From NCBI RefSeq assembly GCF_009931435.1, contig NZ_CP043414.1: DNA of 64,000 nt, one strand, 5' to 3'. The stretch comes from Escherichia coli (GTDB lineage: Bacteria > Pseudomonadota > Gammaproteobacteria > Enterobacterales > Enterobacteriaceae). Position 1 is the stretch's first letter; each line of letters begins with the position of its first letter. A program made the translations under genes and the position numbers. Shown here one piece after another: positions 407 to 39,285 of this stretch. The notes under the pieces were generated by a model that searched no databases, was not told the origin of the DNA, and worked only from the letters and a program-made list of their open reading frames with translations.

Positions 407-416
407 TGCAATTCTC

Positions 417-962
<546 letters not shown>

Positions 963-3727: not shown

Positions 3728-4156
3728 TTAGATAGGCTGCGTCATTAAACCAACCGATTTCACACCCGCACTATGTAACAAGTTCAGTGCTTTAATTATT
3801 TCATCGTAAGGCACATCTTTTGCGCCACCGATCAGAAAGACCGTTTTCGGGTTGGCCTTGAAACGGCTGGACACTTCCGCCACCACCTGCTCTGGTGGTA
3901 AACGCTCCAGGCGATCTTTCTCAACCACCACGGTGTACTGACCAATACCAGACACTTCAACAATCACTGGCGGATTATCGTTACTGCTCACCGCCTGTGA
4001 TTCAGTAGCGTCTGGCAGATCGACCTCCACGCTCTGGGTGATGATGGGCGCTGTCGCCATAAAGATCAGCAACAGCACCAGCAGTACGTCCAGCAACGGT
4101 ACAATGTTGATTTCGGACTTGAGATCGCGACGACCTCGTCCACGCGCTCTGGCCAT
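3728..4156 (-). CDS. tolR: Tol-Pal system protein TolR
   Basis: 142-aa ExbD/TolR-family ORF (MARARGRGRRDLKSEINIVPLLDVLLVLLLIF...). Confidence 0.95.
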   Translation of the reverse strand: MARARGRGRRDLKSEINIVPLLDVLLVLLLIFMATAPIITQSVEVDLPDATESQAVSSNDNPPVIVEVSGIGQYTVVVEKDRLERLPPEQVVAEVSSRFKANPKTVFLIGGAKDVPYDEIIKALNLLHSAGVKSVGLMTQPI

Positions 4157-4159
4157 GGC

Positions 4160-5253
<1,094 letters not shown>

Positions 5254-13197: not shown

Positions 13198-14643
13198 ATG
13201 GAACTTCGAAATAAGAAATTAACCCATGACGAATTCATGACCGAGCGGCAACAGGTATTGAAAACCTGGGAAACCGGCAAGGATGTTGAAAACTTTGAAG
13301 ATGGCGTTAAATACCAACAAACCATTCCTGAGCATAAACGCTTCTCTCTTGCCCTGCTGAAAGCAGACAAGGAAGGTAAAACCCTTAGCCAACCGCGCGC
13401 AGGCGTGGCGCTGATGGACGAACACATCGAACTACTGAAAACACTACAAGAAGAGTGCGATCTGCTGCCGAGCACTATCGATGCATATACCCGTCTGAAT
13501 CGGTACGAAGAAGCTGCTGTAGGGATTAAAAAATCCATCGAAGCCGGAACCTCTAAACTGAACGGTTTACCGGTAGTTAACCACGGCGTCGCAGCTTGCC
13601 GTCGCCTCACCGAAACTCTGCAAAAACCGCTACAGATCCGCCACGGCACGCCAGATGCGCGTCTGCTGGCTGAAATCTCGATGGCCAGCGGCTTTACCAG
13701 TTATGAAGGCGGCGGCATTTCCTACAATATTCCGTATGCCAAGCGCGTAACGCTGGAAAAATCGATCCGCGACTGGCAGTACTGCGATCGTTTAATGGGG
13801 ATGTACGAAGAACACGGGATCCGCATCAACCGCGAACCGTTTGGCCCACTAACGGGTACGCTGATCCCGCCGTTTATCTCGCACTCTATCGCAATAATCG
13901 AAGGCTTGCTGGCACTGGAACAGGGTGTGAAGTCTATCACCGTTGGTTATGGTCAGGTCGGTAGCCTGACGCAGGATGTTGCGGCGATCCAGTCTCTGCG
14001 GGAACTTGCACACGAATATTTTCAGAGCTATGGCTATACCGACTACGAATTAAGTACCGTGTTTCACCAGTGGATGGGAGGCTTTCCGGAGGACGAATCG
14101 AAAGCGTTCGCCATTATCTCCTGGGGTGCTGCAGTCGCGGGGATGTCTGGTGCTACCAAAGTCATCACCAAAAGTCCGCACGAAGCCTGGGGCATCCCGA
14201 CTGCTGCTGCCAACATTCAGGGGCTAAAAGCCTCCCGCCAGATGCTCAACATGGTCAACGAGCAGAAATTCCCGCCGTGCCCGGCGGTTGAACTAGAAAT
14301 TGAACTGATTAAGAGCGAGGTTCGCGCTGTACTGAACAAAGTGTTCGAACTGGGTAATGGTGATATTGCGCGCGGTACGGTGCTGGCATTTGAAGCGGGC
14401 GTACTGGATGTGCCGTTTGCACCAGCCGCCTGCAACGCGGGCAAAATTCTTCCGGTCCGTGACAACACCGGCGCGATACGCGTACTGGAAGCCGGAGCCG
14501 TTCCATTGCCAAAAGATATTCTCGACCTCCACCACGATTACGTTGCGGAACGCGCGCGCTTTGAAGGACGCCAACCGACATTCCAGATGGTTGTAGATGA
14601 CATCAATGCTGTATCCCACAGTAAATTAATAGGAAGACCATAA
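13198..14643 (+). CDS. glmE: Glutamate mutase epsilon (E) catalytic subunit
   Basis: 481 aa; MELRNKK...QPRAGVALMDEHIELL...PSTIDAYTR...GGGISYNIPYAK matches recalled Clostridium GlmE along its length. Confidence 0.9.
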   Translation: MELRNKKLTHDEFMTERQQVLKTWETGKDVENFEDGVKYQQTIPEHKRFSLALLKADKEGKTLSQPRAGVALMDEHIELLKTLQEECDLLPSTIDAYTRLNRYEEAAVGIKKSIEAGTSKLNGLPVVNHGVAACRRLTETLQKPLQIRHGTPDARLLAEISMASGFTSYEGGGISYNIPYAKRVTLEKSIRDWQYCDRLMGMYEEHGIRINREPFGPLTGTLIPPFISHSIAIIEGLLALEQGVKSITVGYGQVGSLTQDVAAIQSLRELAHEYFQSYGYTDYELSTVFHQWMGGFPEDESKAFAIISWGAAVAGMSGATKVITKSPHEAWGIPTAAANIQGLKASRQMLNMVNEQKFPPCPAVELEIELIKSEVRAVLNKVFELGNGDIARGTVLAFEAGVLDVPFAPAACNAGKILPVRDNTGAIRVLEAGAVPLPKDILDLHHDYVAERARFEGRQPTFQMVVDDINAVSHSKLIGRP

Positions 14644-15884
14644 TGAAAATAAAACAGGCCCTTTTTACCGCTGGCTACTCCTCATTCTATTTCGATGATC
14701 AGCAGGCGATAAAAAACGGAGCGGGTCACGACGGCTTTTTCTACACCGGAGAGCCGGTAACACAGGGGTTTAACGCCGTACGTCAGGCCGGGGAGTGCGT
14801 TTCGGTTCAGTTGATTCTGGAAAACGGTGCGGTCGCCGTAGGTGACTGTGCTGCCGTACAGTATTCCGGGGCAGGCGGTCGCGATCCACTGTTCCTCGCA
14901 GAGCACTTTATTCCGTTCCTCAACGACCATATCAAGCCATTACTGGTAGGCCGCGATGTGGATGCTTTCCTGCCGAATGCCCGTTTCTTCGACAAATTGC
15001 GTATTGACGGCAACTTGCTGCATACCGCCGTACGTTACGGATTATCACAGGCGCTGCTTGATGCTACCGCGCTGGCAACCGGCCGTCTGAAAACTGAAGT
15101 GGTCTGTGATGAATGGCAGTTGCCACGCGTGGCGGAATCCATTCCATTATTTGGTCAGAGCGGCGACGATCGATATATCGCCGTCGATAAGATGATCCTT
15201 AAGGGCATCGACGTGCTGCCCCATGCGCTGATTAATAACGTCGAAGAGAAACTGGGCTTTAAAGGTGAAAAACTGCGCGAATATGTCCGCTGGTTGTCAG
15301 ATCGCATTCTGAGCAAGCGCACCAGCGCACGCTACCACCCTACCCTGCACATCGATGTATACGGCACTATCGGTCTGATCTTCGATATGGATCCGCTTCG
15401 CTGTGCGCAATACATCGCCAGTCTGGAAAAAGAGGCGCAAGGCCTGCCGCTCTACATTGAGGGGCCGGTCGATGCCGGTAACAAGCCCGATCAAATCCGC
15501 CTGCTGACCGCGATTACCAAAGAGCTGACGCGCCTCGGTTCCGGCGTGAAAATCGTGGCCGATGAATGGTGTAACACCTACCAGGATATTGTTGATTTCA
15601 CTGATGCCGCCAGTTGCCACATGGTGCAAATCAAAACCCCGGATCTGGGCAGTATTCACAACATCGTCGATGCAGTTCTTTATTGCAACAGCCACAGCAT
15701 GGAAGCGTACCAGGGCGGCACCTGCAATGAAACTGATGTCAGTGCCCGCACCTGTGTCCACGTCGCCCTTGCTGCTCGCCCCATGCGTATGCTGGTAAAA
15801 CCAGGGATGGGCTTTGACGAAGGCCTCGATATCGTCTTCAACGAAATGAATCGTACTATCGCGCTGTTGCAGGCTAAGGATTAA
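14643..15884 (+). CDS. mal: 3-Methylaspartate ammonia-lyase (methylaspartase)
   Basis: 413-aa enolase-superfamily ORF (MKIKQALFTAGYSSFYFDDQ...), same length as clostridial MAL; start overlaps the glmE stop. Confidence 0.85.
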   Translation: MKIKQALFTAGYSSFYFDDQQAIKNGAGHDGFFYTGEPVTQGFNAVRQAGECVSVQLILENGAVAVGDCAAVQYSGAGGRDPLFLAEHFIPFLNDHIKPLLVGRDVDAFLPNARFFDKLRIDGNLLHTAVRYGLSQALLDATALATGRLKTEVVCDEWQLPRVAESIPLFGQSGDDRYIAVDKMILKGIDVLPHALINNVEEKLGFKGEKLREYVRWLSDRILSKRTSARYHPTLHIDVYGTIGLIFDMDPLRCAQYIASLEKEAQGLPLYIEGPVDAGNKPDQIRLLTAITKELTRLGSGVKIVADEWCNTYQDIVDFTDAASCHMVQIKTPDLGSIHNIVDAVLYCNSHSMEAYQGGTCNETDVSARTCVHVALAARPMRMLVKPGMGFDEGLDIVFNEMNRTIALLQAKD

Positions 15885-15887
15885 CAA

Positions 15888-17258
15888 ATGGCTCGTTCTT
15901 TTAAAGTCTTATCGCCAACGGCAATCCTCGGGTATGGATTCCCGGAAGAGAGCTTCCGCAAAGCGATGGCAGAATCGCCCGATCTGATCGCCGTTGATGC
16001 AGGCTCTTCCGATCCTGGCCCCCACTACCTCGGGGCGGGCAAACCGTTTACCGATCGCGCAGGGGTCAAGCGCGATCTGCGCTATATGATCACCGCAGGC
16101 GTGCAAAATAATATACCGGTGGTGATCGGAACGGCCGGCGGTTCTGGTGCCGCTCCACACCTGGAGTGGTGCCGAGAAATAATTCATGAGATTGCCCGGG
16201 AAGAGCACCTCGCGTTCTCGATGGCGCTGATCCCGGCAGACGTTGACAAAGCCATCGTCCACCAGGCGCTGGATAACGGCAAAATCACAGCGCTGGATTT
16301 TGTCCCGCCGTTAACCCACGACGCGATTGACGAAAGTACGTATATCGTCGCGCAAATGGGCATCGAACCCTTCCAGCAGGCGCTGAAAGAAGGCGCGCAA
16401 GTGGTGCTGGGCGGGCGCGCTTACGACCCGGCCTGCTTTGCTGCGCTACCGATCATGCAAGGCTTTGATGAAGGTCTGGCGCTGCATTGTGGGAAAATCC
16501 TTGAATGCGCGGCAATCGCCGCAACGCCCGGCTCAGGCTCTGACTGTGCGATGGGCATCATTGATGACAACGGCTTTACGCTGAAGACATTTAATCCGAA
16601 GCGTAAATTTACCGAAACGTCAGCGGCTGCACACACACTGTATGAGAAATCCGATCCCTACTTCCTGCCAGGACCTGGCGGCGTGTTGAACCTGAAAGGC
16701 TGCACATTTAAAGCGGTCAATGACGGCGAAGTGTACGTCAGCGGTTCTAAGCATGAAGAAACGCCGTATGCCCTGAAACTGGAAGGTGCGCGGCGGGTGG
16801 GCTTCCGCTGTCTGACCATCGCAGGAACGCGCGACCCGATCATGATCGCCGGGATCGATAAAATCATCGATGAAGTCAAAACCAGCGTTTCGCGTAACCT
16901 GTCGCTCGACGATGACAGCATTCGCATCAATTTCCACCTGTACGGCAAAAACGGGGTGATGGGCGACCATGAACCGATGCAAACTGCCGGGCATGAGCTG
17001 GGGATTGTCCTTGATGTAGTTGCACCGACCCAGGATATTGCCAATAGCGTTTGCTCGCTGGTGCGCTCTACCATGCTGCACTACGGCTATGAAAACCGCA
17101 TCGCTACCGCAGGCAACCTGGCGTTCCCGTTCTCCCCTTCTGATATCCAGGGCGGGCCGGTATACGAATTTTCCATATATCACCTGATTGAAGCCAACGA
17201 CGCTCTGCGTTTTGATTTCCATATTGAACAGGTGACGCCAGAAGGAGTTCAGGCATGA
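15888..17258 (+). CDS. DUF1446 (AtuA-like) family protein, function unknown
   Basis: 456-aa ORF tightly linked downstream of mal; sequence resembles the acyclic-terpene-utilisation AtuA-like family as recalled. Confidence 0.6.
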   Translation: MARSFKVLSPTAILGYGFPEESFRKAMAESPDLIAVDAGSSDPGPHYLGAGKPFTDRAGVKRDLRYMITAGVQNNIPVVIGTAGGSGAAPHLEWCREIIHEIAREEHLAFSMALIPADVDKAIVHQALDNGKITALDFVPPLTHDAIDESTYIVAQMGIEPFQQALKEGAQVVLGGRAYDPACFAALPIMQGFDEGLALHCGKILECAAIAATPGSGSDCAMGIIDDNGFTLKTFNPKRKFTETSAAAHTLYEKSDPYFLPGPGGVLNLKGCTFKAVNDGEVYVSGSKHEETPYALKLEGARRVGFRCLTIAGTRDPIMIAGIDKIIDEVKTSVSRNLSLDDDSIRINFHLYGKNGVMGDHEPMQTAGHELGIVLDVVAPTQDIANSVCSLVRSTMLHYGYENRIATAGNLAFPFSPSDIQGGPVYEFSIYHLIEANDALRFDFHIEQVTPEGVQA

Positions 17259-17572
17259 AACAGTCAATTGTCTCACTGGCGCAAGTCATTCGTTCGAAAA
17301 ATGCCGGACCTTACGAACTGGTTTTAGATATTTTATTTAAAACGAAAGAAAACTATGAGCGAGTAAAATCATCAGGGCAATTAACCCCAGAACTGATTGC
17401 GCGCTTATATCATGTTGAACCTGACTTTATTCATCGTATTGTCTGGTTTGATCCTTCTAACGCAGTAAAAATTGTCATGCCACGAGATATTATCTCCGGG
17501 AATGTAGGTGACAATGATGTCTATGGCGCACAGCAACATGCACCTTTATTAAATATGAGTTTCGATTTGTAA
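17255..17572 (+). CDS. DUF4387-family small protein (partner of DUF1446 proteins)
   Basis: 105-aa ORF overlapping the previous stop by 4 nt (translational coupling). Confidence 0.55.
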   Translation: MKQSIVSLAQVIRSKNAGPYELVLDILFKTKENYERVKSSGQLTPELIARLYHVEPDFIHRIVWFDPSNAVKIVMPRDIISGNVGDNDVYGAQQHAPLLNMSFDL

Positions 17573-17732
17573 AAATCCGAACACTTTTAGCCAACTGACA
17601 TCCCGTCACTTATTGCAGCTCAACACTTCAGCTATTTGTAAGGTTGTTATAGCAGGTAGATGCCTGAATCTCTATTCAGGCATCCACTTCTCCTGATTCT
17701 GATTTATCGCCGTGCACCTGATGGAGGAAAAA

Positions 17733-19013
17733 ATGAAGAAAATAAGTTTAACCACGATGATTCTTTTGGCGCTGGTACTTGGAATGATTATCGGCGTAGT
17801 GCTCAATAACACTGCTTCACCGGAAACAGCAAAACTCTATGCGCAAGAAATATCGATATTCACGACGATTTTCTTACGACTGATAAAAATGATTATCGCT
17901 CCGTTAGTGGTCTCTACCCTGGTGGTAGGTATTGCTAAAATGGGCGATGCCAAAGCCCTTGGTCGTATTTTTTCTAAAACACTCTTTTTATTTATTTGCG
18001 CCTCATTGCTGTCAATTGCCTTAGGCTTGATAACGGTAAATTTCTTCATGCCAGGCACAGGAATTAATTTTGTTGCACACGGTGCCGAAACCACCGGAGT
18101 GGTCGCGTCAGAACCCTTTACACTAAAAGTATTTATTTCGCATGCTTTCCCCACCAGCATTGTCGATGCCATGGCGCACAATGAAATTTTGCAAATCGTG
18201 GTGTTCTCAATTTTCCTCGGCTGTAGCCTGACGGCGATTGGTGAGAAAGGCAGCGCCATCGTTCACGCCTTAGATTCGCTGGCACATGCCATGTTAAAGC
18301 TCACTGGCTACGTCATGCTCTTCGCTCCCCTGACCGTATTCGCCGCTATTTCAGCATTGATTGCTGAACGAGGACTGGCAGTTATGGTGAGCGCCGGGAT
18401 CTTTATGGGTGAATTTTATTTCACCATGTTATTACTTTGGGTGCTGCTTATCGGTCTGGCCATCGTTTATGTCGGCCCCTGCATCAGACGCCTGACCCGC
18501 GCCCTTTCAGAACCCGCCCTGCTGGCATTTACCACATCCAGTTCTGAAGCTGCTTTTCCGGGAACGCTTGAAAAACTGGAGCAATTTGGCGTTTCCCCCA
18601 AAATTGCCAGCTTTGTCTTACCCATTGGCTACTCATTTAATCTCGTTGGATCAATGGCCTACTGCTCCTTCGCCACAGTTTTCATCGCCCAGGCCTGCAA
18701 TATCCATTTATCCATCGGTGAGCAAATCACCATGCTGTTGATCCTGATGTTGACCTCGAAAGGAATGGCTGGCGTACCACGCGCCTCAATGGTGGTTATC
18801 GCCGCCACGCTCAACCAGTTCAATATTCCGGAAGCGGGGCTGATCTTGCTGATGGGCGTTGATCCGTTCCTTGATATGGGGCGTTCCGCGACAAACGTCA
18901 TGAGCAACGCAATGGGCGCTGCGATGGTGAGTCGGTGGGAAGGCGAACATTTCGGCGAGGGCTGTCGGGGTAAAGCATTAAAACCCAATGAATCGAACGT
19001 TGCTCTGCCCTGA
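17733..19013 (+). CDS. Dicarboxylate/amino acid:cation symporter (DAACS, GltP-like); putative glutamate or C4/C5-dicarboxylate uptake
   Basis: About 426-aa polytopic membrane protein with DAACS-like sequence; GGAGG upstream of the ATG at 17733 (track ORF starts at 17712). Confidence 0.75.
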   Translation: MKKISLTTMILLALVLGMIIGVVLNNTASPETAKLYAQEISIFTTIFLRLIKMIIAPLVVSTLVVGIAKMGDAKALGRIFSKTLFLFICASLLSIALGLITVNFFMPGTGINFVAHGAETTGVVASEPFTLKVFISHAFPTSIVDAMAHNEILQIVVFSIFLGCSLTAIGEKGSAIVHALDSLAHAMLKLTGYVMLFAPLTVFAAISALIAERGLAVMVSAGIFMGEFYFTMLLLWVLLIGLAIVYVGPCIRRLTRALSEPALLAFTTSSSEAAFPGTLEKLEQFGVSPKIASFVLPIGYSFNLVGSMAYCSFATVFIAQACNIHLSIGEQITMLLILMLTSKGMAGVPRASMVVIAATLNQFNIPEAGLILLMGVDPFLDMGRSATNVMSNAMGAAMVSRWEGEHFGEGCRGKALKPNESNVALP

Positions 19014-19120
19014 GGGGGATCTTAAGCAATCAGAAGCCAATGACTACGCATTTTTATAAGCCGGATCATGAAGTTAGACGGCAATTAAGTAACACTAACG
19101 TTTAAGGTGAAAAGTGAAAT

Positions 19121-20773
19121 ATGTCCAAACCATTTATCTGGCAAGAACCGTTTCTACAAAATAAAGACGGTACAGAATATACATTAATTAGCGATCAACA
19201 TATTACAGTAACGGAATTAGACGGCGAAGAAGTAATAAAAATCGCTCCTGAAGCATTAACGCTGCTTGCCCGGCAGGCATTTTATGAAGCCTCTTTTTTC
19301 TTACGTTCCGCTCATTTGCAACAGGTCGCCAGCATTCTTAACGATCCGCAGGCCAGCAGTAATGATAAATACGTTGCGTTGCAGTTATTACGTAATGCTG
19401 AAGTCTCAGCAAAAGGGGTATTACCCAACTGTCAGGATACCGGCACCGCAACTATTGTTGCCAGTAAAGGGCAACAGATATGGACGGGAGGTAACGACGC
19501 TGAAGCCTTAAGCAAAGGCATTTACAGTACTTTCCAGGAAAATAATCTGCGCTTTTCACAAAATGCGCCGCTGGATATGTATACCGAAGTCAATACGCAA
19601 ACCAATCTTCCGGCGCAGATTGATATCAGCGCTGTCGCTGGTAATGAGTACCATTTTCTCTGTGTTAATAAAGGGGGCGGCTCCGCCAATAAAGCCGCAC
19701 TTTATCAGGAAACCAAATCCTTATTGCAACCAGAAAAACTGACCGCATTTTTAATCGACAAAATGAAATCGTTGGGCACGGCCGCCTGCCCGCCCTACCA
19801 CATCGCCTTTGTCGTCGGAGGGCTTTCAGCCGATCAAACCTTAAAAGTTGCCAAGCTGGCCTCTACGAAATATTACGACAATTTGCCCACCAGCGGAAAC
19901 GAGCAGGGACAAGCATTCCGTGATATTGAGCTGGAAAAAGCGTTGCTCGAGGCCAGTCAGCAATTTGGTATTGGTGCGCAATTTGGGGGTAAATATTTCG
20001 CTCATGATATTCGCGTCATTCGTCTGCCGCGTCACGGTGGCTCTTGCCCGATAGCTATGGCGCTCTCCTGTTCTGCCGATCGCAATATCAAAGCAAAAAT
20101 TAACAAGCATGGTATCTGGCTGGAAAAACTCGAACACAATCCGGGGCAATATATTCCAGCCTCACTGCGGGAAGAAAATCACGCGCAACATGTACAGCTG
20201 GATCTAAACCGTCCGTTGCGTGACGTGATGCAGGATCTCGCCAGATTACCGGTAGGTACCCGCGTGTCGTTAAGTGGTCCCATCGTAGTGGCGCGCGATA
20301 TCGCCCACGCAAAAATAAAAGCGCGGCTGGATAGCGGCGAATCGATGCCGGATTACCTGAAGCATCATATTGTCTATTACGCTGGCCCGGCGAAAACACC
20401 GGAGAACATGGCCTGCGGTTCACTGGGTCCAACCACGGGCGGTCGAATGGACGGTTATGTCGAAACCTTCCAGGCGGCTGGCGGCAGTCTGGTAATGTTA
20501 TCGAAAGGTAACCGCAGCCAGCAGGTCACCGATGCCTGTCACAAACATGCAGGCTTCAATCTGGGAAGTATTGGCGGTGCAGCTGCGTTACTGGCGCAAG
20601 AATATGTCAAAAGTCTGCGTTGCCTGGAATACCCGGAGCTGGGTATGGAGGCGGTGTGGATGATGGAAGTGGAAAATCTGCCCGCATTCATCCTGGTTGA
20701 TGATAAAGGCAATAATTTCTTTAGCCAGTTTGAGCAGCAACACCGCTGCGCCAGTTGCCCTGCGGGACATTAA
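19121..20773 (+). CDS. fumD: Class I (Fe-S) fumarate hydratase family; probable mesaconase/fumarase
   Basis: 550-aa FumA/FumB-like ORF (..[10 protein letters not shown]..); its position in a glutamate mutase/methylaspartase cluster suggests mesaconate hydratase. Confidence 0.8.
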
Positions 20774-20782
20774 GGAAAATGA

Positions 20783-21385
20783 ATGGAAGCGCGAATTTCA
20801 ACTGAACGGCATGTGCAGCGCCAACAGAAATTGAAGGAACAGGTCGATACGCGCGTCGCGGCGGCGATAGAGAAAAAAGGGATCTTGATTGTTTTCACCG
20901 GCAACGGCAAAGGGAAATCCACTGCCGCGTTTGGTACTGTGACGCGCGCGGTGGGTCATGGCAAAACGGTGGGGGTTGCGCAGTACATCAAGGGGCAATG
21001 GGACAACGGCGAATACAACCTTCTCCAGCCGCTGGGGGTTGAGTTTCATATTATGGGAACCGGTTTTACCTGGGAGACTCAGAACCGGCAAGCGGATATC
21101 GACGCGGCGAAAGAGGTCTGGTCGGAAAGCAAACGGATGCTGGCTGACAAGCGTTACGACTTAGTGGTGCTTGATGAGCTGACCTATATGCTGGCTTACC
21201 ATTATCTGGACACCGAAGAAGTGATCACTTCTCTGCAAAACCGCCCGGCACAACAAAGTGTCATTGTCACCGGACGCAGTTGCCACAGTCAGATATTAAA
21301 AATGGCGGATACGGTCAGCGAAATCCGCCCCGTCAAACATGCTTTTGATAACGGCATTCAGGCGCAGCCGGGTATCGACTGGTAA
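20783..21385 (+). CDS. Cob(I)yrinic acid a,c-diamide / corrinoid adenosyltransferase (CobA/BtuR/CobO family)
   Basis: 200-aa ORF with P-loop GNGKGKSTAAFG; would supply adenosylcobalamin for glutamate mutase. Confidence 0.8.
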   Translation: MEARISTERHVQRQQKLKEQVDTRVAAAIEKKGILIVFTGNGKGKSTAAFGTVTRAVGHGKTVGVAQYIKGQWDNGEYNLLQPLGVEFHIMGTGFTWETQNRQADIDAAKEVWSESKRMLADKRYDLVVLDELTYMLAYHYLDTEEVITSLQNRPAQQSVIVTGRSCHSQILKMADTVSEIRPVKHAFDNGIQAQPGIDW

Positions 21386-22324: not shown

Positions 22325-22471
22325 AATGCCGTCCCTTAAAAATAGTTTAAACCATCAAAAATACATTACTTATTACGAAGTAATGGTAACCAAAGCAGCA
22401 ATAAATAATTTATAAGAATCATGATTAACATTTATAACCCAGTAAGCCTGGCGTGACAATTATCTTAATCA

Positions 22472-22509
22472 GATAATAATAATCCGAAAAGCACAGCACC
22501 TTTCGGATT
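22472..22509 (-). terminator. Hairpin downstream of the hut-like operon (candidate terminator)
   Basis: atccgaaa-N-tttcggat inverted repeat in the AT-rich spacer between the HAL-like gene and the LysR gene. Confidence 0.4.
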
Positions 22510-22594
22510 ATCAGGAATTACATTAAGTGAAAATTATTAAATTGATATCATTTATCATATCTGTGGATATAATGATAAACAATCAACATAGATT

Positions 22595-24265
22595 TTATTT
22601 TTGATTTATAGCATATCCCTCTAAGAATTTTTGCGATGCTTCAATATCCGGGGTAAAGACCCGATCCTGACTGACAAATGGCACGACTTGACGATAAGCG
22701 GTGAACATCGCTTTTGTTGATTTGCCTAACGCCAGCTGTGGATCGGCTTGCAAGCGCAAATCAATCGCCTGGGCAGAATGCATCAGTTCAATGCCATAAA
22801 TGACATTCAAATTATCAACAACCTGTTTCAATCTTCTCGCCGCGTGGTCGTTATTGGCACCCGTATCTTCAATGCCTCCGGCTACCGGTTGAATATCGAA
22901 AGAAACCGGGTTAGCGAGATCGACATTTTCCGCATGCAGCGCAACAAACGGGATATGTAATGAACCGAAGCCATGACCTTTATTACCTGCTGCCGACAGG
23001 AAGCGTGACAAACCGGTAAAGTGATCATCTTCAAGATGCAGCGAGCGGCGCATACTGTTATGTGAAACATGCACTAACGCCACGGTCAGACGCTGGGTGG
23101 CAAGCGCAACCGGTAACGATTCGAAATTCGCCGTCGGGAAGATCCCACCGCTGATTGCCCCATCTTTAACAAAATATTGCGCGACCTGACTGGAGTCCTG
23201 ATACGCTTTGTCTGCATTCAGCACGGTTGCCGGGTTGTCATCGGAACTGTTGATCTGCACGGTAATGGTATCTTCAGCATCGCGCAACGCGCGCATTGCC
23301 TCAGAAATGGTATACACCGTCGTTCTGAACGATAACGGATCCTGCAATGCACGTTTGTCATCCTTATGCCATAAATAAGAACCACTTAACGCATCGCGAA
23401 TCTCTTTAGCGGAATCAGCCAACTGCGGGAAAGGACGCACGGCGATCGACTGCGGCAGTACCGGCGCGACATTGCCATTCAACGCTTCGAGGCTCATGGC
23501 GAAAACCACCGGACTGACATTCAGCACCTGGCGTGCCGACCGTACCGCTTCAATTGCATATGCTGTTCCGACACTGTTGTTCGACAAAATCGCCAGCATA
23601 TCTTTACCCTGCGGGACCAGTGGTTTAAGCCCCACTTTCACCAGCGCATCGCCACCACTCATTTCCACGCCATTAACCCGCGCTTTCCACTCGCCCATCA
23701 TCACCAGACCAACGTGTGAAGCGAGCATAATATCCGCTGCGCCGATACTTCCCCGCGCCGGAATTAACGGCGTAACGCCTCGATTAATAAACTCGGCATA
23801 CAACTCGGCAATATAAGGCTGCGCGCCGGTTTGCCCATGCAACATAGTATTTAAACGTAACACCATTGAGAGACGGGCAAGATAATCCGGCAACATCGGA
23901 CCGACGCCCGCAGAATGGGCGCGCAGCGCGGCAGCATTAAATTTTTTCGATGCGTCAATCACCTCAGGCGTTAAATTTCCTTTGGCATCAAATATGGGCT
24001 GATCTTTATTTAGCCCCACGCCCACGGTTAAGCCATAAACAGGCGTACCTGAATGCGCGGCAGTCATCACCAGATCATAACTTTTTTCCATGCGCTCCAT
24101 GGCGTTCGACGCGATTTTGACGCCGTTATCACCTAATGCAATTGACCAGGCCTGGTCAATAGAGAGATGTTCGCCATCCAGCGTAATGGTTGATTTTGCC
24201 ATCGCGATGGAGCAAACGCTCCAGAGCACAACGGTGACAGTGACTCTGCGTATCAATCCTTTCAT
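22595..24265 (-). CDS. Histidine ammonia-lyase-like protein (aromatic amino acid lyase fold) with N-terminal signal peptide and no Ala-Ser-Gly MIO triad
   Basis: 556 aa; MKGLIRRVTVTVVLWSVCSIAMA|KS signal-like N-terminus; region aligning to the HAL GSxGASGDLAPL motif reads GSIGAADIMLASH. Confidence 0.7.
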   Translation of the reverse strand: MKGLIRRVTVTVVLWSVCSIAMAKSTITLDGEHLSIDQAWSIALGDNGVKIASNAMERMEKSYDLVMTAAHSGTPVYGLTVGVGLNKDQPIFDAKGNLTPEVIDASKKFNAAALRAHSAGVGPMLPDYLARLSMVLRLNTMLHGQTGAQPYIAELYAEFINRGVTPLIPARGSIGAADIMLASHVGLVMMGEWKARVNGVEMSGGDALVKVGLKPLVPQGKDMLAILSNNSVGTAYAIEAVRSARQVLNVSPVVFAMSLEALNGNVAPVLPQSIAVRPFPQLADSAKEIRDALSGSYLWHKDDKRALQDPLSFRTTVYTISEAMRALRDAEDTITVQINSSDDNPATVLNADKAYQDSSQVAQYFVKDGAISGGIFPTANFESLPVALATQRLTVALVHVSHNSMRRSLHLEDDHFTGLSRFLSAAGNKGHGFGSLHIPFVALHAENVDLANPVSFDIQPVAGGIEDTGANNDHAARRLKQVVDNLNVIYGIELMHSAQAIDLRLQADPQLALGKSTKAMFTAYRQVVPFVSQDRVFTPDIEASQKFLEGYAINQK

Positions 24266-24315
24266 TGTGTTTCCTTATTTTGATGAGTTTAACAACGGAT
24301 TACTGCAACAACCTC

Positions 24316-25266
24316 TTAATTTGTTTTATCTGTTTTTCCTCGACGGACAATAGTGGCAGCCAGGCGAGCGGCAACCTTCGCGGTCAAATTATCGCGGTCC
24401 AAATCTGGGTTCAGTTCGGCAATATCCGCAGCAATCAACTTCTCGCTACCGGCAATTAAATTCACAATAGCCTCAGCAATATTTAATGGCACGCCTAACG
24501 GCGAAGGCGCAGAAACGCCAGGAGCCTGATAACCCGGTAAGACATCAAGACAAATCGTTAAATAAATGGCGTCACACGCCTGAATATCTGCCGAGAGCGC
24601 ATTAACAATCTCATGCAAACCACGTTCAAATTGCAGAGATTCATCCAGCCAATAACGCACACCAGGACAATCAGCACGATCAAATAACGCCTGAGTGTTG
24701 GCATAACGGCTTATTCCCAGCACGCGATAATGAAACGGTTTGCCATGCTGCGCATTCCACTCCTGCATCTGCCGAAACGGCGTACCCGAATTGGCCTTTT
24801 CCGCCATCCGCAAATCAAAATGCGCGTCAAGGTTGACTATCAGCAGTCGCCGAATATCCGGACGCGACTGCATAATCCCCTGAAATGTTCCCCATGCCAC
24901 TTCATGACCGCCGCCCAGAACGACCGGCAAACTGCCGCGCGCAATTGCCATAGCCACGTTTTCCGCCAGACGGTTTTGTGCGGGTTCCAGCGCGTGGTCT
25001 TCGCTTTGCACGTCACCCATGTCAAAAATAGCGCCTTCATGGAGCACTGGCATATTGCCCAACATGCTGCGTAATGCGCCCGGTCCGCCTGCTGCGCCCG
25101 CTCGCCCACCGTTACGTTGCACCCCGTCATCGACGGCAAAACCAATCAGCGTACTGCCTCCATGACTTTGTTCGGTAAACGGTTTTACATGCTGATGCCA
25201 GCGGGTGCTGACGCCAGTTTCCTGCGAGTCAACACGTCCACTCCATGCCATAAATGTTTGCTTCAT
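24316..25266 (-). CDS. hutG: Formimidoylglutamase (arginase-family HutG)
   Basis: Arginase/ureohydrolase-like ORF; start placed at MKQTFMAWSG so the ATG overlaps the hutI stop. Confidence 0.75.
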   Translation of the reverse strand: MKQTFMAWSGRVDSQETGVSTRWHQHVKPFTEQSHGGSTLIGFAVDDGVQRNGGRAGAAGGPGALRSMLGNMPVLHEGAIFDMGDVQSEDHALEPAQNRLAENVAMAIARGSLPVVLGGGHEVAWGTFQGIMQSRPDIRRLLIVNLDAHFDLRMAEKANSGTPFRQMQEWNAQHGKPFHYRVLGISRYANTQALFDRADCPGVRYWLDESLQFERGLHEIVNALSADIQACDAIYLTICLDVLPGYQAPGVSAPSPLGVPLNIAEAIVNLIAGSEKLIAADIAELNPDLDRDNLTAKVAARLAATIVRRGKTDKTN

Positions 25267-26477
25267 TACCAACTCCTTTTTCCGCCGACAATCAGCCCCA
25301 GACAAGGCTGATGTCCAAACCAGTAAGCCAGCTCACGCGGATGATTAAGATCCCAAACAGCCATATCCGCCCGTAGTCCCGGCGCAAGTTCACCCCGATC
25401 AACAAGTCCAAGCGCTTTTGCCGCATGACGTGTAACGCCCTGAACGGCTTCCAGCGGGGTCATGTGAAACAGCGTACAGGCCATATTGATCATCAACTGC
25501 AATGACATGTTGGGAGACGTTCCGGGGTTATGATCCGTGGAGATGGCAATCGGCACACCTGCGGCCCGCAGAGCGACAATCGGCGGCAGATGGGTTTCGC
25601 GCAGGAAGTAATAAGCACCGGGAAGCAAAACCGCCACTGTTCCAGCCGCTTTCATGGCGGCGATCCCCGACTCGCTCAGGTACTCCAGATGATCGCAGGA
25701 GAGTGCAGAAAACGCCGCTGCCAGCGCCGCGCCTTGCTGGTCAGAAAGCTGTTCGGCATGCAGTTTTACAGGTAATCCATAGCTTTGCGCTTTACTGAAA
25801 ACGCGCCGTACCTGCTCTGGAGTAAAGGCGATGTTTTCACAAAAAGCATCAACTGCATCAATCAGCCCCTGTTCATGCAACACGCACATCCAGTCGCAAA
25901 GCGCCGTAATGTAATCATCACTGCGCCCGGCAAACTCTGGCGGCAGGCTGTGCGCCCCGAGAAACGTAGACTGAATATGTAACCCGGTAGATTGCTGCAA
26001 GCGGCGGATCACGCGTAAACAACGCGCTTCATCTTCCAGCGTTAAGCCATAACCCGATTTGATTTCAAGCGTACTGACGCCTTCACGTTGCCAGTTTCGC
26101 AGTCGCTGCGCCGCCAGTTCAAACAGCTGTGTTTCGCTGGCTGCCCGCGTGGCATTAACCGTAGATAAGATCCCGCCGCCCGCTCTGGCGATATCTTCAT
26201 AAGCCACGCCTTGCAACCGCATCTCAAACTCGTTCGCCCTCTGGCCGCCATACACCAGATGTGTATGACAATCTACCAGACCGGGTGTCAGCAACTTACC
26301 CTGTAGATCGTGTTCTTCTGTAATATCAGCCGTCAGTTCACGGGGGATCTGCGTGGCCTTCCCAAGCCAGACAATCGAGTCACCGCGGCTGATTAATGCA
26401 CCGTTTTCAATCACCCCCCAATCATTAGCCGAAAGCGTCGTCAGGGTGGTATTTCGCCAGAGCGTAAATGCACTCAT
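25266..26477 (-). CDS. hutI: Imidazolonepropionase
   Basis: Amidohydrolase ORF with DCHTHLVYGG metal-binding motif; start at MSAFTLW overlapping the hutD stop. Confidence 0.85.
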   Translation of the reverse strand: MSAFTLWRNTTLTTLSANDWGVIENGALISRGDSIVWLGKATQIPRELTADITEEHDLQGKLLTPGLVDCHTHLVYGGQRANEFEMRLQGVAYEDIARAGGGILSTVNATRAASETQLFELAAQRLRNWQREGVSTLEIKSGYGLTLEDEARCLRVIRRLQQSTGLHIQSTFLGAHSLPPEFAGRSDDYITALCDWMCVLHEQGLIDAVDAFCENIAFTPEQVRRVFSKAQSYGLPVKLHAEQLSDQQGAALAAAFSALSCDHLEYLSESGIAAMKAAGTVAVLLPGAYYFLRETHLPPIVALRAAGVPIAISTDHNPGTSPNMSLQLMINMACTLFHMTPLEAVQGVTRHAAKALGLVDRGELAPGLRADMAVWDLNHPRELAYWFGHQPCLGLIVGGKRSW

Positions 26478-27064
26478 AAGGATTTTTCCCCTCGTAGATA
26501 ATAAATCCACCAACCCGCCAGCTCGCCGACGGAGACTTTTTGCTGTGGTACGAAACGCCAGGAGTTGCCATCAGGCGCAAACCGCCATAACAACGTATTC
26601 GCCGTTACAAACACCCTGTTCTCGCCGCTTATCCACTCCCCTTCACACAGCGTGAACAGCCCCGCTTGCGCATGCGCCGGAGGGAGCCAGTCAATGACGC
26701 TTTGCACACGACGCATCCCCGCATCGCCTTCCCGCGCCATAATATTCAGATCGCGAACCCCGCCGCCCAGCAGCTGACAATCAGGCATTGCTTCTCCAGG
26801 GAAAATTAAGGCGGGATCGTGACGTTGCAGGTTGATGATCGAATCGGCAAACGTTAGCTTCACCCCTTCCCCGTCGAGGATCGCGAGGCCACGAACCACG
26901 CCAGGCCACGCTGAAAAAGGGCCATCCTGACTGACATTCGCCATACTGATGCGCAACAACCAGTTTTCATCATCGGGCCAGGCAAGCAGCTGTCGGGTAA
27001 ACCCCCCGCCGTTGCGCCACGGTTGCAGCGGCTTATCCATTGCAGAAATCAGCATCGGTTCCAT
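26474..27064 (-). CDS. hutD: HutD-family protein
   Basis: 196-aa ORF (..PWRNGGGFTRQL..) resembling HutD; embedded in the hut cluster. Confidence 0.65.
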   Translation of the reverse strand: MEPMLISAMDKPLQPWRNGGGFTRQLLAWPDDENWLLRISMANVSQDGPFSAWPGVVRGLAILDGEGVKLTFADSIINLQRHDPALIFPGEAMPDCQLLGGGVRDLNIMAREGDAGMRRVQSVIDWLPPAHAQAGLFTLCEGEWISGENRVFVTANTLLWRFAPDGNSWRFVPQQKVSVGELAGWWIYYLRGEKSL

Positions 27065-27065
27065 A

Positions 27066-28475
27066 TTAAGACTCGGGATAAATCGTATAAGCAGGAACGC
27101 AGGTGGTGCGTTTGGCCCACGGGTAATAGATAACGGCGGTAATTAACAAGCCGACAATCCAGGAGATATCCGCCCCATCCATCAGGACAGAAATGGGTCC
27201 CTGATACAGTTTTTGATTCAGGAAGGGGATCTGCACCAACACGCCTACGCCATAGCACGTCAAAGCGGTTTTGTTATACGCGCCATAACGCCCTTCCGGG
27301 GTATAAAGCGCTGGAATATCGGTTTTACCTTGTGAGATGAAGTAATAATCGATGAGATTAATGGCACTCCACGGAACAAATACCGTCAACAGTAGCAGAA
27401 CGAAGTTTTTGAAATTATTCAAAAAATCTGCGCTTGCCGCCAGCGCGACGACCATCGACAACAGCACGAACCCTACAACGTAGGCAGCACGAACACGCTG
27501 TGAAACCTGACTGCGATCATTAAAGGCGCTGACGGTCGCCAGAATCGACATAAAGCCACCGTAGGCATTCAAACAGTTCACCGTCAGTTTGCCGCAAACA
27601 ATCACCATATAAATCAGAATGGCGAAGGTGGGTCCGGCTAACTCGCCCATAAAACCAACCTGATCCTTCAGGAAGTTAGCACCACAGGCCGCAACAAGTA
27701 CGCCAAACGTCATGGCACATTGCGCACCAAGCGTGGTTCCCAGAAAGGTGGCAAAGAAGATTGATTTTGCTGGCGTATCAGAGGGTAAATAGCGGGAATA
27801 ATCAGAGGCGTAAGGGGCAAACGTTAATTGCCATCCGGCAGAGAGAGCAATCGTTAATAAAAAGACCGACAGACTAAATGGCTTTTGACCAAATGCCGCA
27901 GCCACATCGTAGTGACCGCTAAGTTGAGTGGCCAGGTAAATAAACCCCAGAATACTTAATATCCCTGCAACACGGCCAACGACGTGAATTAGTTTATAAC
28001 CGACCAATGCGATCATCGCGGTCAGCATGCCGAAAATAATAATTCCGGTCGATGCCGATTCGAAACCAAATATCCGGTTAATCGCCTGACCGGATAATAC
28101 TGTACCCGTCGCGGCAAATCCAAGGTACATAATAATCACCATCAGTAACGGTAGCGCCGCTCCTTTAACGCCAAAGCGGATACGACTGGAGATCATCTGG
28201 GGTAATCCCAGCTTTGCCCCCTGCGACGAGTGCAATGCCATTACTGCACCACCAATAATATTACCGATTAATAAACCAATTATTGCTGACATAGCTTCGG
28301 AGCCAAAAATAATCGCTAACGCGCCGTCCACCACTGCGGTAATTTGTAAGTTAGCACTTAGCCATAAAGTAAACTGACTAGATGGCGCGCCGTGGCGAGC
28401 AGACTCAGGAACGGCGTTAATCGTATTTGATTCTAATACTGGCTTTTTACTGCGGATAGGGCTGCTTGATTCCAT
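27066..28475 (-). CDS. NCS1-family (cytosine/purine/uracil/allantoin-type) permease; candidate histidine/urocanate/imidazole-compound importer
   Basis: Polytopic membrane ORF; start set at MESSSP with AGGAGA RBS (track ORF starts at 28520). Confidence 0.7.
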   Translation of the reverse strand: MESSSPIRSKKPVLESNTINAVPESARHGAPSSQFTLWLSANLQITAVVDGALAIIFGSEAMSAIIGLLIGNIIGGAVMALHSSQGAKLGLPQMISSRIRFGVKGAALPLLMVIIMYLGFAATGTVLSGQAINRIFGFESASTGIIIFGMLTAMIALVGYKLIHVVGRVAGILSILGFIYLATQLSGHYDVAAAFGQKPFSLSVFLLTIALSAGWQLTFAPYASDYSRYLPSDTPAKSIFFATFLGTTLGAQCAMTFGVLVAACGANFLKDQVGFMGELAGPTFAILIYMVIVCGKLTVNCLNAYGGFMSILATVSAFNDRSQVSQRVRAAYVVGFVLLSMVVALAASADFLNNFKNFVLLLLTVFVPWSAINLIDYYFISQGKTDIPALYTPEGRYGAYNKTALTCYGVGVLVQIPFLNQKLYQGPISVLMDGADISWIVGLLITAVIYYPWAKRTTCVPAYTIYPES

Positions 28476-28638
28476 GAAAAAGTCTCCTGCAAAATGAGAG
28501 GTCATTTTTTGAAACAGCAATAGAGGGTCGGGAGATATTTTTCTCGACGATGTAAAAATATTTTTTGATAATTATTGTTATACAGGCGAATTATTCTCCG
28601 CCTGTATTAGCGCAAATATTAAATGACGGCGTTAATAT

Positions 28639-30336
28639 TTAGCGAATCATCGGTAATTTCAGACCATAGTTTTTGGCACATTCAATTGCCGCTTCATAAC
28701 CCGCATCCGCATGACGCATAACCCCGGACGCACAGTCATTCACCAGCACACGCGCCAGACGTTTTTCGGCTTCTTCGCTACCATCGGCAACAATAACCAT
28801 CCCGGCGTGTTGTGAATACCCCATCCCGACGCCGCCGCCATGATGCAGGGATACCCACGTTGCTCCCCCTGCAGTGTTGAGCAAACCGTTGAGCAACGGC
28901 CAGTCAGAAACCGCATCACTGCCATCAAGCATGCTTTCGGTTTCGCGGTTCGGGCTGGCGACAGAACCGGTATCAAGATGATCGCGCCCAATCACAATCG
29001 GTGCTTTTAGTTCACCGTTGCGCACCATTTCGTTGAATGCCAGCCCCGCCAGGTGACGCTCACCAAGCCCCAGCCAGCAAATACGTGAAGGAAGTCCCTG
29101 GAAGGCAATGCGCTCGCGCGCCATATCCAGCCAGCGATGCGTCAGTACGTTATTGGGGAACAACTCTTTAATTTTGGCATCGGTTTTATAGATATCTTCC
29201 GGGTCGCCAGACAGCGCCACCCAACGGAATGGACCTTTGCCTTCACAAAACATTGGACGAATATAAGCCGGAACAAAGCCCGGGAAATCAAAGGCATTTT
29301 GCAGACCTTCGTTGAAGGCCACCTGGCGGATGTTGTTGCCATAATCGACAACCGGGATCCCCATCGCCTGGAAGTCCAGCATCCCCTGAACATGTGCGAC
29401 GCAGCTCTGTGCCGCTTCTTTTTGCAATCTGGCGTGTTGCTGTGGATCCTGCTGTGCAGCGCGCCATTGTTCTACGCTCCAGCCCATCGGTAGGTAGCCA
29501 TAAACCAGATCGTGAGCGGAAGTCTGGTCGGTTACCAGATCCGGCTTAATCGCCCCCTGATGCGCACGTTTCACCAGCTCAGGAACAATTTCCGCCGCAT
29601 TGCCCAACAGCGCGATTGAAACAGCGTCTTTGCGCTCGGTATGGTATTTAATCAGCGCCAGTGCATCATCAAGATCTTTCGCTTGTTTATCGACATAACG
29701 GGTACGCAGTCGGAAGTCGATGCTACTTTGCTGGCACTCGATATTTAATGAGCACGCCCCCGCCAGAGTCGCCGCCAGCGGTTGTGCGCCACCCATACCA
29801 CCGAGCCCCGCGGTCAGGATCCATTTTCCACTCAGCGAATTGTTGTAGTGCTGACGACCCGCTTCAACAAAGGTTTCGAACGTTCCCTGCACAATGCCCT
29901 GACTACCGATGTAGATCCACGAGCCAGCGGTCATCTGGCCGTACATGAACAGACCTTTACGATCCAGTTCATTGAAATGATCCCAGTTGGCCCATTGCGG
30001 TACCAGGTTAGAGTTGGCAATCAATACGCGCGGCGCATCGGTATGCGTTTTAAACACGCCTACGGGTTTACCGGACTGAACCAGCAGTGACTCATCAGCT
30101 TCCAGATTTTTCAGTGATTCAAGGATCTTGTCAAAACACTCCCAGTTACGTGCCGCACGACCAATACCACCATACACCACCAGATGCTGTGGATTTTCGG
30201 CAACGTCGGGATCAAGGTTGTTCTGCAACATCCGGTAGGCTGCTTCAATTTGCCAGTTTTTGCAGTGCAGCTGCGTACCGTGTGGCGCATGGATTACACG
30301 GCTGGTATCAATACGCGGGTCTGAAGGCTTACTCAT
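28639..30336 (-). CDS. hutU: Urocanate hydratase (urocanase)
   Basis: About 565 aa from [47 protein letters not shown]; AGGAGA RBS upstream; the track ORF extends to 30435. Confidence 0.9.
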
Positions 30337-30454
30337 GAATCTTCTCCTGTTACTTGATAAAATTAAACGCTGTAATCGGTCAGAAAAAACGAACGAATGA
30401 ATATAGAAACGGTTTCTATAATTCCCGTTTATCATTTTGTATTATTAATTCATT

Positions 30455-30487
30455 TAGTGAATATTGTTTGTCTTGGTATATTCACTA
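30455..30487. promoter_or_regulatory. Perfect 10-bp inverted repeat (TAGTGAATAT-N13-ATATTCACTA) in the hutU leader; candidate operator
   Basis: Seen directly, 20-50 bp upstream of the hutU start, in the divergent hutU / rtcB-like intergenic region. Confidence 0.4.
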
Positions 30488-31093
30488 TGAATATAAATTC
30501 AAAACCACCAACGCGTTGTATGCGAATTCAATATGCTTAATTTAACTTGTCGAAAAAGTGATATTGTTGGCAAAATATTTTCTAATTTGAACATATGAAT
30601 ATGATGAGATTGCAAGATGTCAGTAATTTAATTATCTAAGAAATGCGTTAATAACGACCAGATATTAGCGTAACAACAGGTGTTCCGACACCACACAGTG
30701 CGCATAACACAATGATATTTAAAATAAGATCTTCATTATTCGTCATAAAGACATGTTTTATTATCATTAATAATCCATTTGTTTTCATCCCACTTTTGAT
30801 AATTAAAAAACGGCAACAATGGCTAGTTACCCGACGTAAAAATAGGCGTAAAAATAAATCTTAAAATATATCCACTGGAAATTATCATTTTTCATATTTT
30901 ACAATCTGGCGTCGATAACTTACCCCTTTTATAACACCCCCGTTTGTTAATAGTCTTTTTTATCTTGTATTGATCGTCATTGCTGCATACACTACGCGCG
31001 TTTTCTTTCCCTTTTGCTGGCTGCTGACCGGAAAGACAAAATTACCCTCGCAATACAGGGGGTTGATTAACGTCTATATTTCAGGACAGCGTT

Positions 31094-32492
31094 ATGCATC
31101 ATCTTTCAAGGCTTGATAAAGCCTTTCTGCGCAAAGGGATCCAACTTTCCCGCGCCAACAATATTGTTTCATTATGTCGTCCATCAGGAGCCAGTGCCCG
31201 CGTACTGCTGCCGGACGAACTGCCGCTGGAAGAAAAAGCAGTGACACAACTGCTTGATTTTGCAGAAGTGAAGATACCAGGCCATCCAGGTTACGTACGC
31301 CAGACGTGCGCGACGCCAGATTTTCATCCCGGCAATGGCGTCCCCGTTGGCGCGGTGGTGGCCTCAACGCCGGATTTAGTCATTCCCGCCGCCATCGGCA
31401 CCGATATTTCTTGTGGCATGCGGCTGCTGACGACCGGATTAACCCTTGAGCAAGCCGAAGCGAATAAAGAAATAATCACTCAGCGGTTAACACAAGTGTT
31501 ACTGCAGAATGAGCGCGATGTTCCGTTATCCGCACGAGCGTTCACCGCGCTTTTTGATGGCGGACCGGCAGATTGCATGTCGGCCTTGCCATCAGCAGGT
31601 CTCTGGACACGTACAAATATCCCCCGGATGACGCAAGAGATTGACCGCTGCATTGGGCTTAACGAGCATAACAGTCATTCGCGTTATGCCCCCACCTGCC
31701 CTGCTGGCAACGGACCGCGCATTACTCCGCGATCCTTGTCTTGGTACGCCGGGTTCAGGTAATCATTTTATTGAACTTCAGGTCGTTGATAGCGTGGTTG
31801 ATCGCCATGTAGCCTGGCAACAAGGGCTGAAAACAGGCGATATTGTGGTGATGATCCACAGTGGATCGCGAGATGTTGGCTTTTACGTCGGAAGACGCTG
31901 GATGGATCGCGCCCGTGCTGAATGGCCCACCGGACATAAACATCCACAAAGCGGGTTATATGGTCTGGCAGGCGGACTGGCGGAGGAATATCTACAAGCG
32001 ATAGGAATGGCGGCGCGTTACGCGTGGTTAAATCGCGTGACAATTGCCGAAATGGTGCGCGTATGTCTTGCCAATCTCTTTCATCAGGACAATTCGCATC
32101 TGGTGGTGGATGTGCCACATAACATCATCCTTCGCGAGCATGAAATGAATATTCATCGCAAAGGCGCAACACCGGCACGAGTGGGCAATCTGGCGTTAAT
32201 CCCCGGTTCAATGGGCGATTATTCGTGGCTTGCGGTTGGTTGCGGCAACCCGGAGTGGCTGTGGTCATGCAGTCACGGAGCAGGACGCAGCCAGCGTCGG
32301 CAGGCCATGCGCTCACGCGCGACTGAAGAGTCAACGCTGCCGTGGCAATGCGTCACATTGCGCGAAGAACGACGTCTTGAAGAAGCGCCAGCGGCTTATA
32401 AAGATATTGGTCCGGTTATCGAAGCCCAACAAGAAGCCGGATTAATTCAGCCTGTGGTCAGATTTCGACCGTGGTTAACGTTTAAGGCATAA
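31094..32492 (+). pseudogene. RtcB-family RNA ligase-like gene split by a frameshift (or a sequencing error) near 31690
   Basis: Two overlapping ORFs in different frames (31094..31762 and 31641..32492) carry RtcB-like motifs (DISCGMRLL; GSGNHFIELQ; CSHGAGRS); C5 run at 31688-31692. Confidence 0.6.
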
Positions 32493-32493
32493 A

Positions 32494-32590
32494 AAAGGCC
32501 ATCATACGATGGCCAACCATGTCGAAACCGACAGCCCTTCGCCATTCCTGTAGAGGGAAGCGGCGAGGGCTATTTCTTATTACAGATATT
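32494..32590 (-). ncRNA. sdhX: sucD 3' UTR with intrinsic terminator; position corresponds to the 3'UTR-derived sRNA SdhX (RybD)
   Basis: ggccatc-atac-gatggcc hairpin followed by a T-run on the - strand right after the sucD stop; the sRNA identity is by position only. Confidence 0.4.
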
Positions 32591-33459
32591 TATTTCAGAA
32601 CAGTTTTCAGTGCTTCACCGATATCCGCCAGGCTGCGAACGGTTTTCACGCCTGCGGCTTCCAGAGCAGCGAATTTCTCATCCGCAGTCCCTTTCCCACC
32701 GGCAATGATGGCACCCGCGTGGCCCATACGTTTGCCTTTCGGCGCAGTTACACCAGCGATGTAACCTACAACTGGCTTGGTAACGTGCTCTTTGATGTAC
32801 GCAGCCGCTTCTTCTTCAGCGCTACCGCCGATCTCACCGATCATCACGATCGCTTCGGTCTGCGGATCTTTTTCGAACATTTCGAGGATGTCGATAAAGT
32901 TAGAGCCAGGGATCGGGTCGCCGCCGATACCGACACAGGTCGACTGACCGAAACCGTAATCCGTGGTCTGTTTAACCGCTTCATAGGTGAGTGTACCGGA
33001 ACGGGAAACGATACCCACTTTACCCGGTTTGTGAATGTGACCCGGCTGGATACCGATTTTGCATTCACCCGGAGTGATAACGCCCGGGCAGTTCGGGCCG
33101 ATCATACGAACGCCTGCTTCATCCAGTTTCACTTTCACGGTCAGCATATCCAGCGTCGGGATGCCTTCAGTGATGGTGATAATCAGTTTGATACCTGCGT
33201 CGATGGCTTCCAGAATGGAGTCTTTGCAGAACGGAGCCGGTACGTAGATAACAGAAGCGGTAGCGCCAGTGGCAGCAACGGCTTCACGCACGGTGTTGAA
33301 CACCGGCAGACCGAGGTGGGTAGTACCGCCTTTACCTGGGGTTACGCCGCCAACCATTTTAGTGCCGTATGCAATGGCCTGTTCAGAGTGGAAAGTCCCC
33401 TGGCTACCAGTAAAGCCCTGGCAGATAACCTTGGTGTTTTTATCAATTAAAATGGACAT
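32590..33459 (-). CDS. sucD: Succinyl-CoA synthetase alpha subunit
   Basis: 289 aa, [45 protein letters not shown]. Confidence 0.97.
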
Positions 33460-39002: not shown

Positions 39003-39285
39003 TTCCTGCATTTCTTTTGTAGGCCGGATAACGCATTCACGCTGCATCCGGCGCTGTTTGCCTGATGCGACGCTTGCGCGTCTTATCAGGCCTACGATTC
39101 CTGCATTTCTTTTGTAGGCCGGATAACGCATTCACGCCGCATCCGGCCCTGGTTGCCTGATGCGACGCTTGCGCGTCTTATCAAGCCTACGATTTCTGCA
39201 TTTCTTTTGTAGGCCGGATAAGGCGTTCACGCCGCATCCGGCACTGGTTGCCTGATGCGACGCTTGTGCGTCTTATCAGGCCTGG
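39003..39285. repeat. Cluster of three tandem BIME/REP units in the sdhB-sucA intergenic region
   Basis: Three near-identical ~95-bp units, each with two REP palindromes (taggccggataa...gcatccggc and gcctgatgcgacgcttgcgcgtcttatcaggcctac). Confidence 0.85.

Follow-up and report, generated by a model that had tools for sequence, protein, structure and literature searches.

Sequence and predicted structure of the sucD 3'UTR of an Escherichia coli genome point to an intact sdhX small RNA gene with a one-directional terminator at the edge of variable DNA

The 64,000-nucleotide stretch of Escherichia coli DNA analysed here (the window) very probably carries an intact sdhX gene, as judged from its sequence, that is, the gene for the 3'UTR-derived, Hfq-dependent small RNA (sRNA) of the sdhCDAB-sucABCD operon, ending in a terminator that works in one direction only and that stands at the boundary between core DNA and a variable island. 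The evidence comes from the identity of the 3'UTR, its predicted structure, its position, its conservation in the population and the location of the boundary, all of which were determined directly. The sdhX of this genome is an ordinary, conserved feature that has already been characterised, and nothing in it departs from what is known. Its significance goes little beyond correct annotation: the genome keeps an unaltered regulator through which the TCA-cycle operon is connected with acetate metabolism.

The sucD coding sequence (succinyl-CoA synthetase alpha subunit) occupies positions 32590-33459 of the minus strand as a 289-aa open reading frame, in agreement with the RefSeq calls of sucD in matching E. 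coli DNA, and its TAA stop codon lies at 32592-32590. This is the final gene of the sdhCDAB-sucABCD operon, and sucC and a sucB/odhB homologue were found upstream of it on the same strand. The sequence-only reading had placed the sucD 3'UTR in the position of the SdhX sRNA and had proposed an alignment with the K-12 gene as the check, and this alignment confirmed the proposal. The 101 nt that follow the sucD stop codon (32589-32489, minus strand), corresponding to the full-length form of sdhX, were identical at 100 of 101 positions, in a gapless alignment, to positions 765050-765150 of NC_000913.3, where the RefSeq annotation of K-12 MG1655 places the ncRNA sdhX (b4764) right after sucD, with the convergent mngR gene ending at 765153. 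The sole mismatch, at nt 100 (G in K-12, A here), lies past both the U-run and the mapped 3' end of the K-12 RNA, and the seed, G62, C34, the 38-nt core, the terminator hairpin and the run of six U (U6) were all unchanged with respect to K-12. An SdhX-type sRNA is retained here at the sequence level. Rfam searches of the whole window at gathering thresholds, and of positions 32300-32800 at E <= 10, found no SdhX-like family, a null result that is uninformative and offers no covariance-model confirmation, as Rfam apparently has no SdhX model; the lone Rfam match near sdhX was a sub-threshold isrD hit on the terminator (17.3 bits for a cutoff of 37). An 81-aa open reading frame on the plus strand (32519-32764) was rejected as a real gene, since it runs antisense to sdhX and sucD and nothing supports it.

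On the minus strand, the 3'UTR opens with an A/U-rich leader, followed by the long and imperfect 5' stem-loop of the long form of SdhX (nt 19-57; 32571-32533), as predicted by folding, whose apical part is the katG-pairing region with C34 (32556) inside it. A mostly single-stranded stretch in the predicted fold (32532-32515) comes after the stem-loop and bears the seed UUCGACAUGGU (nt 64-74; 32526-32516), an exact match to the published string; the 38-nt stretch that matches the short form of the sRNA likewise begins at nt 64. G62 is at 32528; this residue and C34 were read from the window sequence using the positions defined in PMC6393394. The UUU at 32527-32525 is the counterpart, by alignment, of the UUU that was mutated to CCC at the Salmonella RNase E processing site, and the sequence surrounding it here is that of K-12. 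Immediately downstream of the seed is the terminator hairpin GGCCAUC-GUAU-GAUGGCC (32514-32497), with 7 bp, five of them G-C pairs, and a 4-nt loop, which was recovered by the scan and by the fold and is identical to that of K-12; the U6 run (32496-32491) follows it directly. The strong hairpin with a T-run that had been noticed after the sucD stop codon was thus confirmed as a GC-rich terminator of the minus strand. The U6 of such sRNAs is the Hfq-binding 3' tail.

The 101-nt UTR had a predicted folding energy of -41.3 kcal/mol, compared with -25.0 +/- 3.5 kcal/mol for 200 dinucleotide-shuffled sequences (z = -4.7), not one of which was as good, and the z-scores obtained for this fold ranged from -4.4 to -4.7. 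The 38-nt form folded at -12.7 kcal/mol and left the seed stretch unpaired. A weak 4-bp helix between nt 58-61 and nt 66-69, which covers part of the seed, was also predicted; K-12, whose sRNA is active, has the identical helix.

SdhX has been described as an Hfq-dependent sRNA cut by RNase E from the sdhCDAB-sucABCD mRNA, with UUCGACAUGGU, located just before the terminator stem, as the seed candidate; a 38-nt form suffices for the repression of ackA, which is the conserved target, whereas the regulation of fdoG and katG is E. coli-specific and requires G62 and C34, respectively (Miyakoshi et al. 2019, PMC6393394). In Salmonella enterica, forms of 87 nt (SdhX1) and 38 nt (SdhX2) were found, and fumB and yfbV were reported as Salmonella-specific targets (PMC6393394). 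A review (PMC9438474) gives forms of about 101 and 38 nt together with a list of targets. When the seed stretch was paired with the start region of K-12 ackA (UUCCAUGUCGAGU), the predicted duplex had an energy of -16.7 kcal/mol, against -8.8 +/- 2.2 kcal/mol for shuffled seeds, only one in 1000 of which was as good. Nearly all complete E. coli genomes (5424 of 5426) keep this start region with an identity of 99% or more, and the same target site is to be expected in this genome, ackA, fdoG and katG being located outside the window.

Transcription, processing, Hfq binding and target repression would be expected here by analogy with published work on identical or near-identical sequences. By comparison with K-12 and Salmonella, the operon transcript would end at the intrinsic terminator formed by the hairpin at 32514-32497 and the U6 run at 32496-32491, and cleavage by RNase E would release forms of about 101 and 38 nt. 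Through its single-stranded seed UUCGACAUGGU, the sRNA would then pair across the ackA start codon and repress the synthesis of acetate kinase, and the E. coli-specific residues G62 and C34 would add fdoG and katG to the set of putative targets.

The consensus terminator scan called the hairpin at 32514-32497 on the minus strand only. Two terminator-like sites were found in the surrounding 3 kb, where 3.2 were expected, a number that is not above chance, and therefore the case for a terminator is based on its position and on its identity to a mapped one. In K-12, Adams et al. (2021, eLife) placed the dominant Term-seq 3' end, with very high scores, at 765148, which is the final U of a U6 run identical to the one here, and the 3' end of the RNA is accordingly to be expected at about 32491 in the window, the position equivalent to 765148. 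The same study listed a bicyclomycin-sensitive region at K-12 position 765604 (plus strand, that of sdhX, antisense to mngR) in its table of Rho-dependence, a sign that some transcription may pass the sdhX terminator in K-12; the counterpart of this region differs in the window, where it would be antisense to the RtcB-family gene that converges on sdhX.

The sequence-only reading had described the terminator as bidirectional, and this part of it was not supported: the terminator works in one direction only, that of the sucD strand. On the plus strand the sequence reads AAAAAA, the hairpin and then AACCAUGU, which lacks a U-run and has two U in the eight positions after the stem, against seven in eight on the minus strand. 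It is true that the hairpin is a near-perfect palindrome that folds equally well on both strands (-12.7 and -13.0 kcal/mol), that convergent genes abut it both here and in K-12, and that bidirectional terminators between convergent E. coli genes are on record. Nevertheless, given this U-poor tail and the calling of the hairpin on one strand only by the scan, we consider it unlikely that the hairpin at 32497-32514 is a true bidirectional intrinsic terminator, ending the transcripts of sdh-suc/SdhX as well as those of the convergent RtcB-family gene. At the identical K-12 hairpin, Adams et al. (2021) tabulated a strong Term-seq 3' end on the sdhX strand and none on the mngR strand; this absence counts for little, since expression of mngR may be too low for a 3' end to be recorded. 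Our literature searches found no published evidence of a bidirectional terminator between sucD and mngR.

Transcripts from the plus strand could also be terminated elsewhere. The complement of the SdhX 5' stem-loop, at 32533-32571 on the plus strand, folds with -23.4 kcal/mol and is followed by UAUUUCUU, and this arrangement resembles a terminator, with a putative role on the plus strand. It is possible, although we regard it as doubtful, that the region holds two hairpins, one per direction, with 32514-32497 plus U6 serving the sucD strand and the complement of the 5' stem-loop followed by UAUUUCUUAUUA serving the plus strand; the convergent transcripts would then run through the hairpin at 32514-32497 and carry a perfect antisense of the SdhX seed. 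The stability of this stem, the six U in the eight positions of its tail and the identity of both stem and tail in K-12 are consistent with such a model, but the model is a purely structural inference, the 5' stem-loop is not conserved outside Escherichia, and no equivalent plus-strand 3' end is listed for K-12. The simple scan missed this site because its stem is bulged. Moreover, the RtcB-family gene is frameshifted here, so Rho-dependent polarity could end its transcript earlier. A further step, in which the transcripts of the neighbouring gene (the RtcB-family gene here, mngR in K-12) would pass the sdhX hairpin, end at the complement of the 5' stem-loop and, carrying antisense of the seed and core, titrate or destabilise SdhX, seems highly improbable; if true, it would link strain-specific accessory DNA to the control of acetate metabolism. 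We retain the reading in which the hairpin and U6 run at 32514-32491 terminate transcription of the sucD strand only.

The first gene of the variable island on the other side of the terminator is a convergent, frameshifted member of the RtcB family (31094-32492, plus strand). It is split into two plus-strand open reading frames (31094-31762 and 31641-32492), both matched by Pfam PF01139. The gene had been thought to end 2 nt before the hairpin, but the gap measured 4 nt, as the gene ends at 32492 and the stem begins at 32497; its TAA stop codon (32490-32492) shares two bases with the end of the U/A-run. The split is explained by a +1 frameshift, caused by an additional C within the C-run at about 31685-31689, with respect to the intact 465-aa homologues of the closest E. 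coli genomes, with which DNA identity was 98.5%. Alignment to the intact 1398-nt gene of 2020CK-00188 showed a single 1-nt indel. An artefact of open reading frame calling was considered and rejected, this being a genuine 1-nt length difference in a homopolymer, and the gene is either a pseudogene or the product of a homopolymer sequencing error. The RtcB gene is intact in 2020CK-00188, R32_14_1F and Z0117EC0005, and in the first two the gene order is the same as in the window.

Other elements of the window were recorded along with this gene. A histidine-utilisation module lies between a LysR-family gene and the RtcB gene (22330-31090), all on the minus strand, and comprises hutU (28639-30435), a permease, HutD, hutI, hutG and an ammonia-lyase of the HAL/PAL type (22595-24265). 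At least 80% of this module is present in only 143 of 5426 complete E. coli genomes, and O157:H7 and Z0117EC0005 are without it. At about 13198-21385, in the gap between sucD and cydA, a methylaspartate-pathway island replaces the mngR-mngA-mngB genes of K-12, with the gene order of Z0117EC0005 and O157; its genes encode methylaspartate mutase and ammonia-lyase, AtuA-family and DUF4387 proteins, a dicarboxylate symporter, a class I fumarate hydratase and cobO. At gathering threshold, Rfam also gave three tandem naRNA4/REP-type elements (39022-39092, 39117-39187 and 39212-39282, plus strand) and a CpoB/ybgF thermometer (378-516, minus strand).

The suggestion that variable DNA had been joined right at the sucD terminator was borne out: identity with K-12 is complete through the U6 run and becomes random within about 4 nt. 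The joining is genuine but typical of the site. Of the 5426 complete E. coli genomes, 3883 have the mngR-type junction and about 1133 have RtcB-type sequence, whatever its length, at the site; the RtcB gene is largely complete in 144-156. The RtcB-type junction also occurs in a cryptic Escherichia clade, the gene being reduced to a short 3' remnant in O157:H7 and in cryptic-clade Escherichia. In strain NC101 a third, unrelated sequence comes right after the U-run and is followed by a gene for a TPR protein, so that at least three unrelated segments (mngR, the RtcB-family gene or its remnant, and the TPR-protein gene) lie against the same terminator. Conservation ended within a few bases of the U-run in all the genomes examined. 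Although mngR next to sdhX is the majority state in E. coli, it is uncertain whether the RtcB side, rather than mngR, should be called the accessory neighbour; in an Enterobacter genome, too, sdhX faces a convergent gene for an MngR homologue (72% amino-acid identity), and therefore the mngR arrangement is not peculiar to E. coli. The sdhX terminator is thus a hard boundary of the gene-replacement hotspot that extends from sucD to cydA, a modestly useful point for comparative work.

This boundary bears on the idea that the sRNA is kept in sequence but impaired, with the replaced downstream DNA or convergent transcription altering its termination or stability. The DNA immediately 3' of the U-run does differ from that of K-12, which could change termination efficiency or read-through, and the stop codon of the RtcB-family gene reaches into the U-run. 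However, the main determinants of intrinsic termination, the hairpin and the U-run, are both unchanged in the window. Furthermore, sdhX is conserved in the approximately 1133 genomes with RtcB-type sequence at the site, and the seed, terminator and U6 run are unchanged next to each of at least three different downstream sequences. Impairment of this kind is extremely unlikely, and an intact sdhX remains the preferred reading.

Conservation of the gene in the population was nearly complete. With the 101-nt query and at least 80% coverage, sdhX was recovered from 5424 of 5426 complete E. coli genomes, with at least 99% identity in 4225 records. A class with 97% identity is exemplified by the B2 strain NC101, which differs by two bases in the 5' stem-loop and one in the terminator loop and has an intact seed; in NC101 (locus L015, 151-310) the stem-loop change is AU to GG at nt 45-46. 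In FDAARGOS_944 (NZ_CP065613.1; locus L005, about 4073-4880) an IS1 element interrupts sdhX after nt 73, between the seed and the terminator, and this strain is a natural candidate for an sdhX-disrupted one. Species-representative genomes were scanned with an exact 20-mer (the seed and the start of the stem), a biased sample and not a census, which gave six loci, in Enterobacter, Silvania, Pseudocitrobacter, Intestinirhabdus, Leclercia and cryptic Escherichia. No E. coli representative appeared among these loci, likely because the G-to-T change in the terminator loop of B2-type strains such as NC101 breaks the 20-mer. The block formed by the seed, the terminator and the U-run is kept in seven genera, and the sequence upstream of the seed and past the U-run is variable. 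In an alignment of eight genomes (the six loci, the window and K-12) the seed was invariant, although the loci had been chosen by a 20-mer that contains it. SdhX was variable outside the seed in this alignment, in keeping with the unusual variability outside the short seed reported by Miyakoshi et al. 2019 (PMC6393394).

Compared with known systems, the hairpin shares with bidirectional intrinsic terminators a palindromic, GC-rich sequence between convergent genes, but those carry a U-run on the second strand, whereas here there is none, nor is there a second-strand 3' end in the K-12 data. The sdhX of the window is like that of K-12 (SdhX, also RybD; b4764) in its strand and in its position after the sucD stop codon, and differs in its neighbour, which in K-12 is mngR, with its stop codon 4 nt past the U-run, and here is the frameshifted RtcB-family gene, with its stop codon overlapping the U-run. 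It resembles SdhX of Salmonella enterica in having the core seed CGACAU ahead of a Rho-independent terminator, but it is the E. coli version, with G62, where Salmonella has U, and with a katG-pairing region that is absent from Salmonella (PMC6393394). Finally, CpxQ, SroC, NarS and MalH are built in the same way, with an operon terminator that provides the 3' end and the Hfq site and RNase E cleavage that produces the 5' end (PMC9438474), and they differ from SdhX in their parent operons, seeds and targets.
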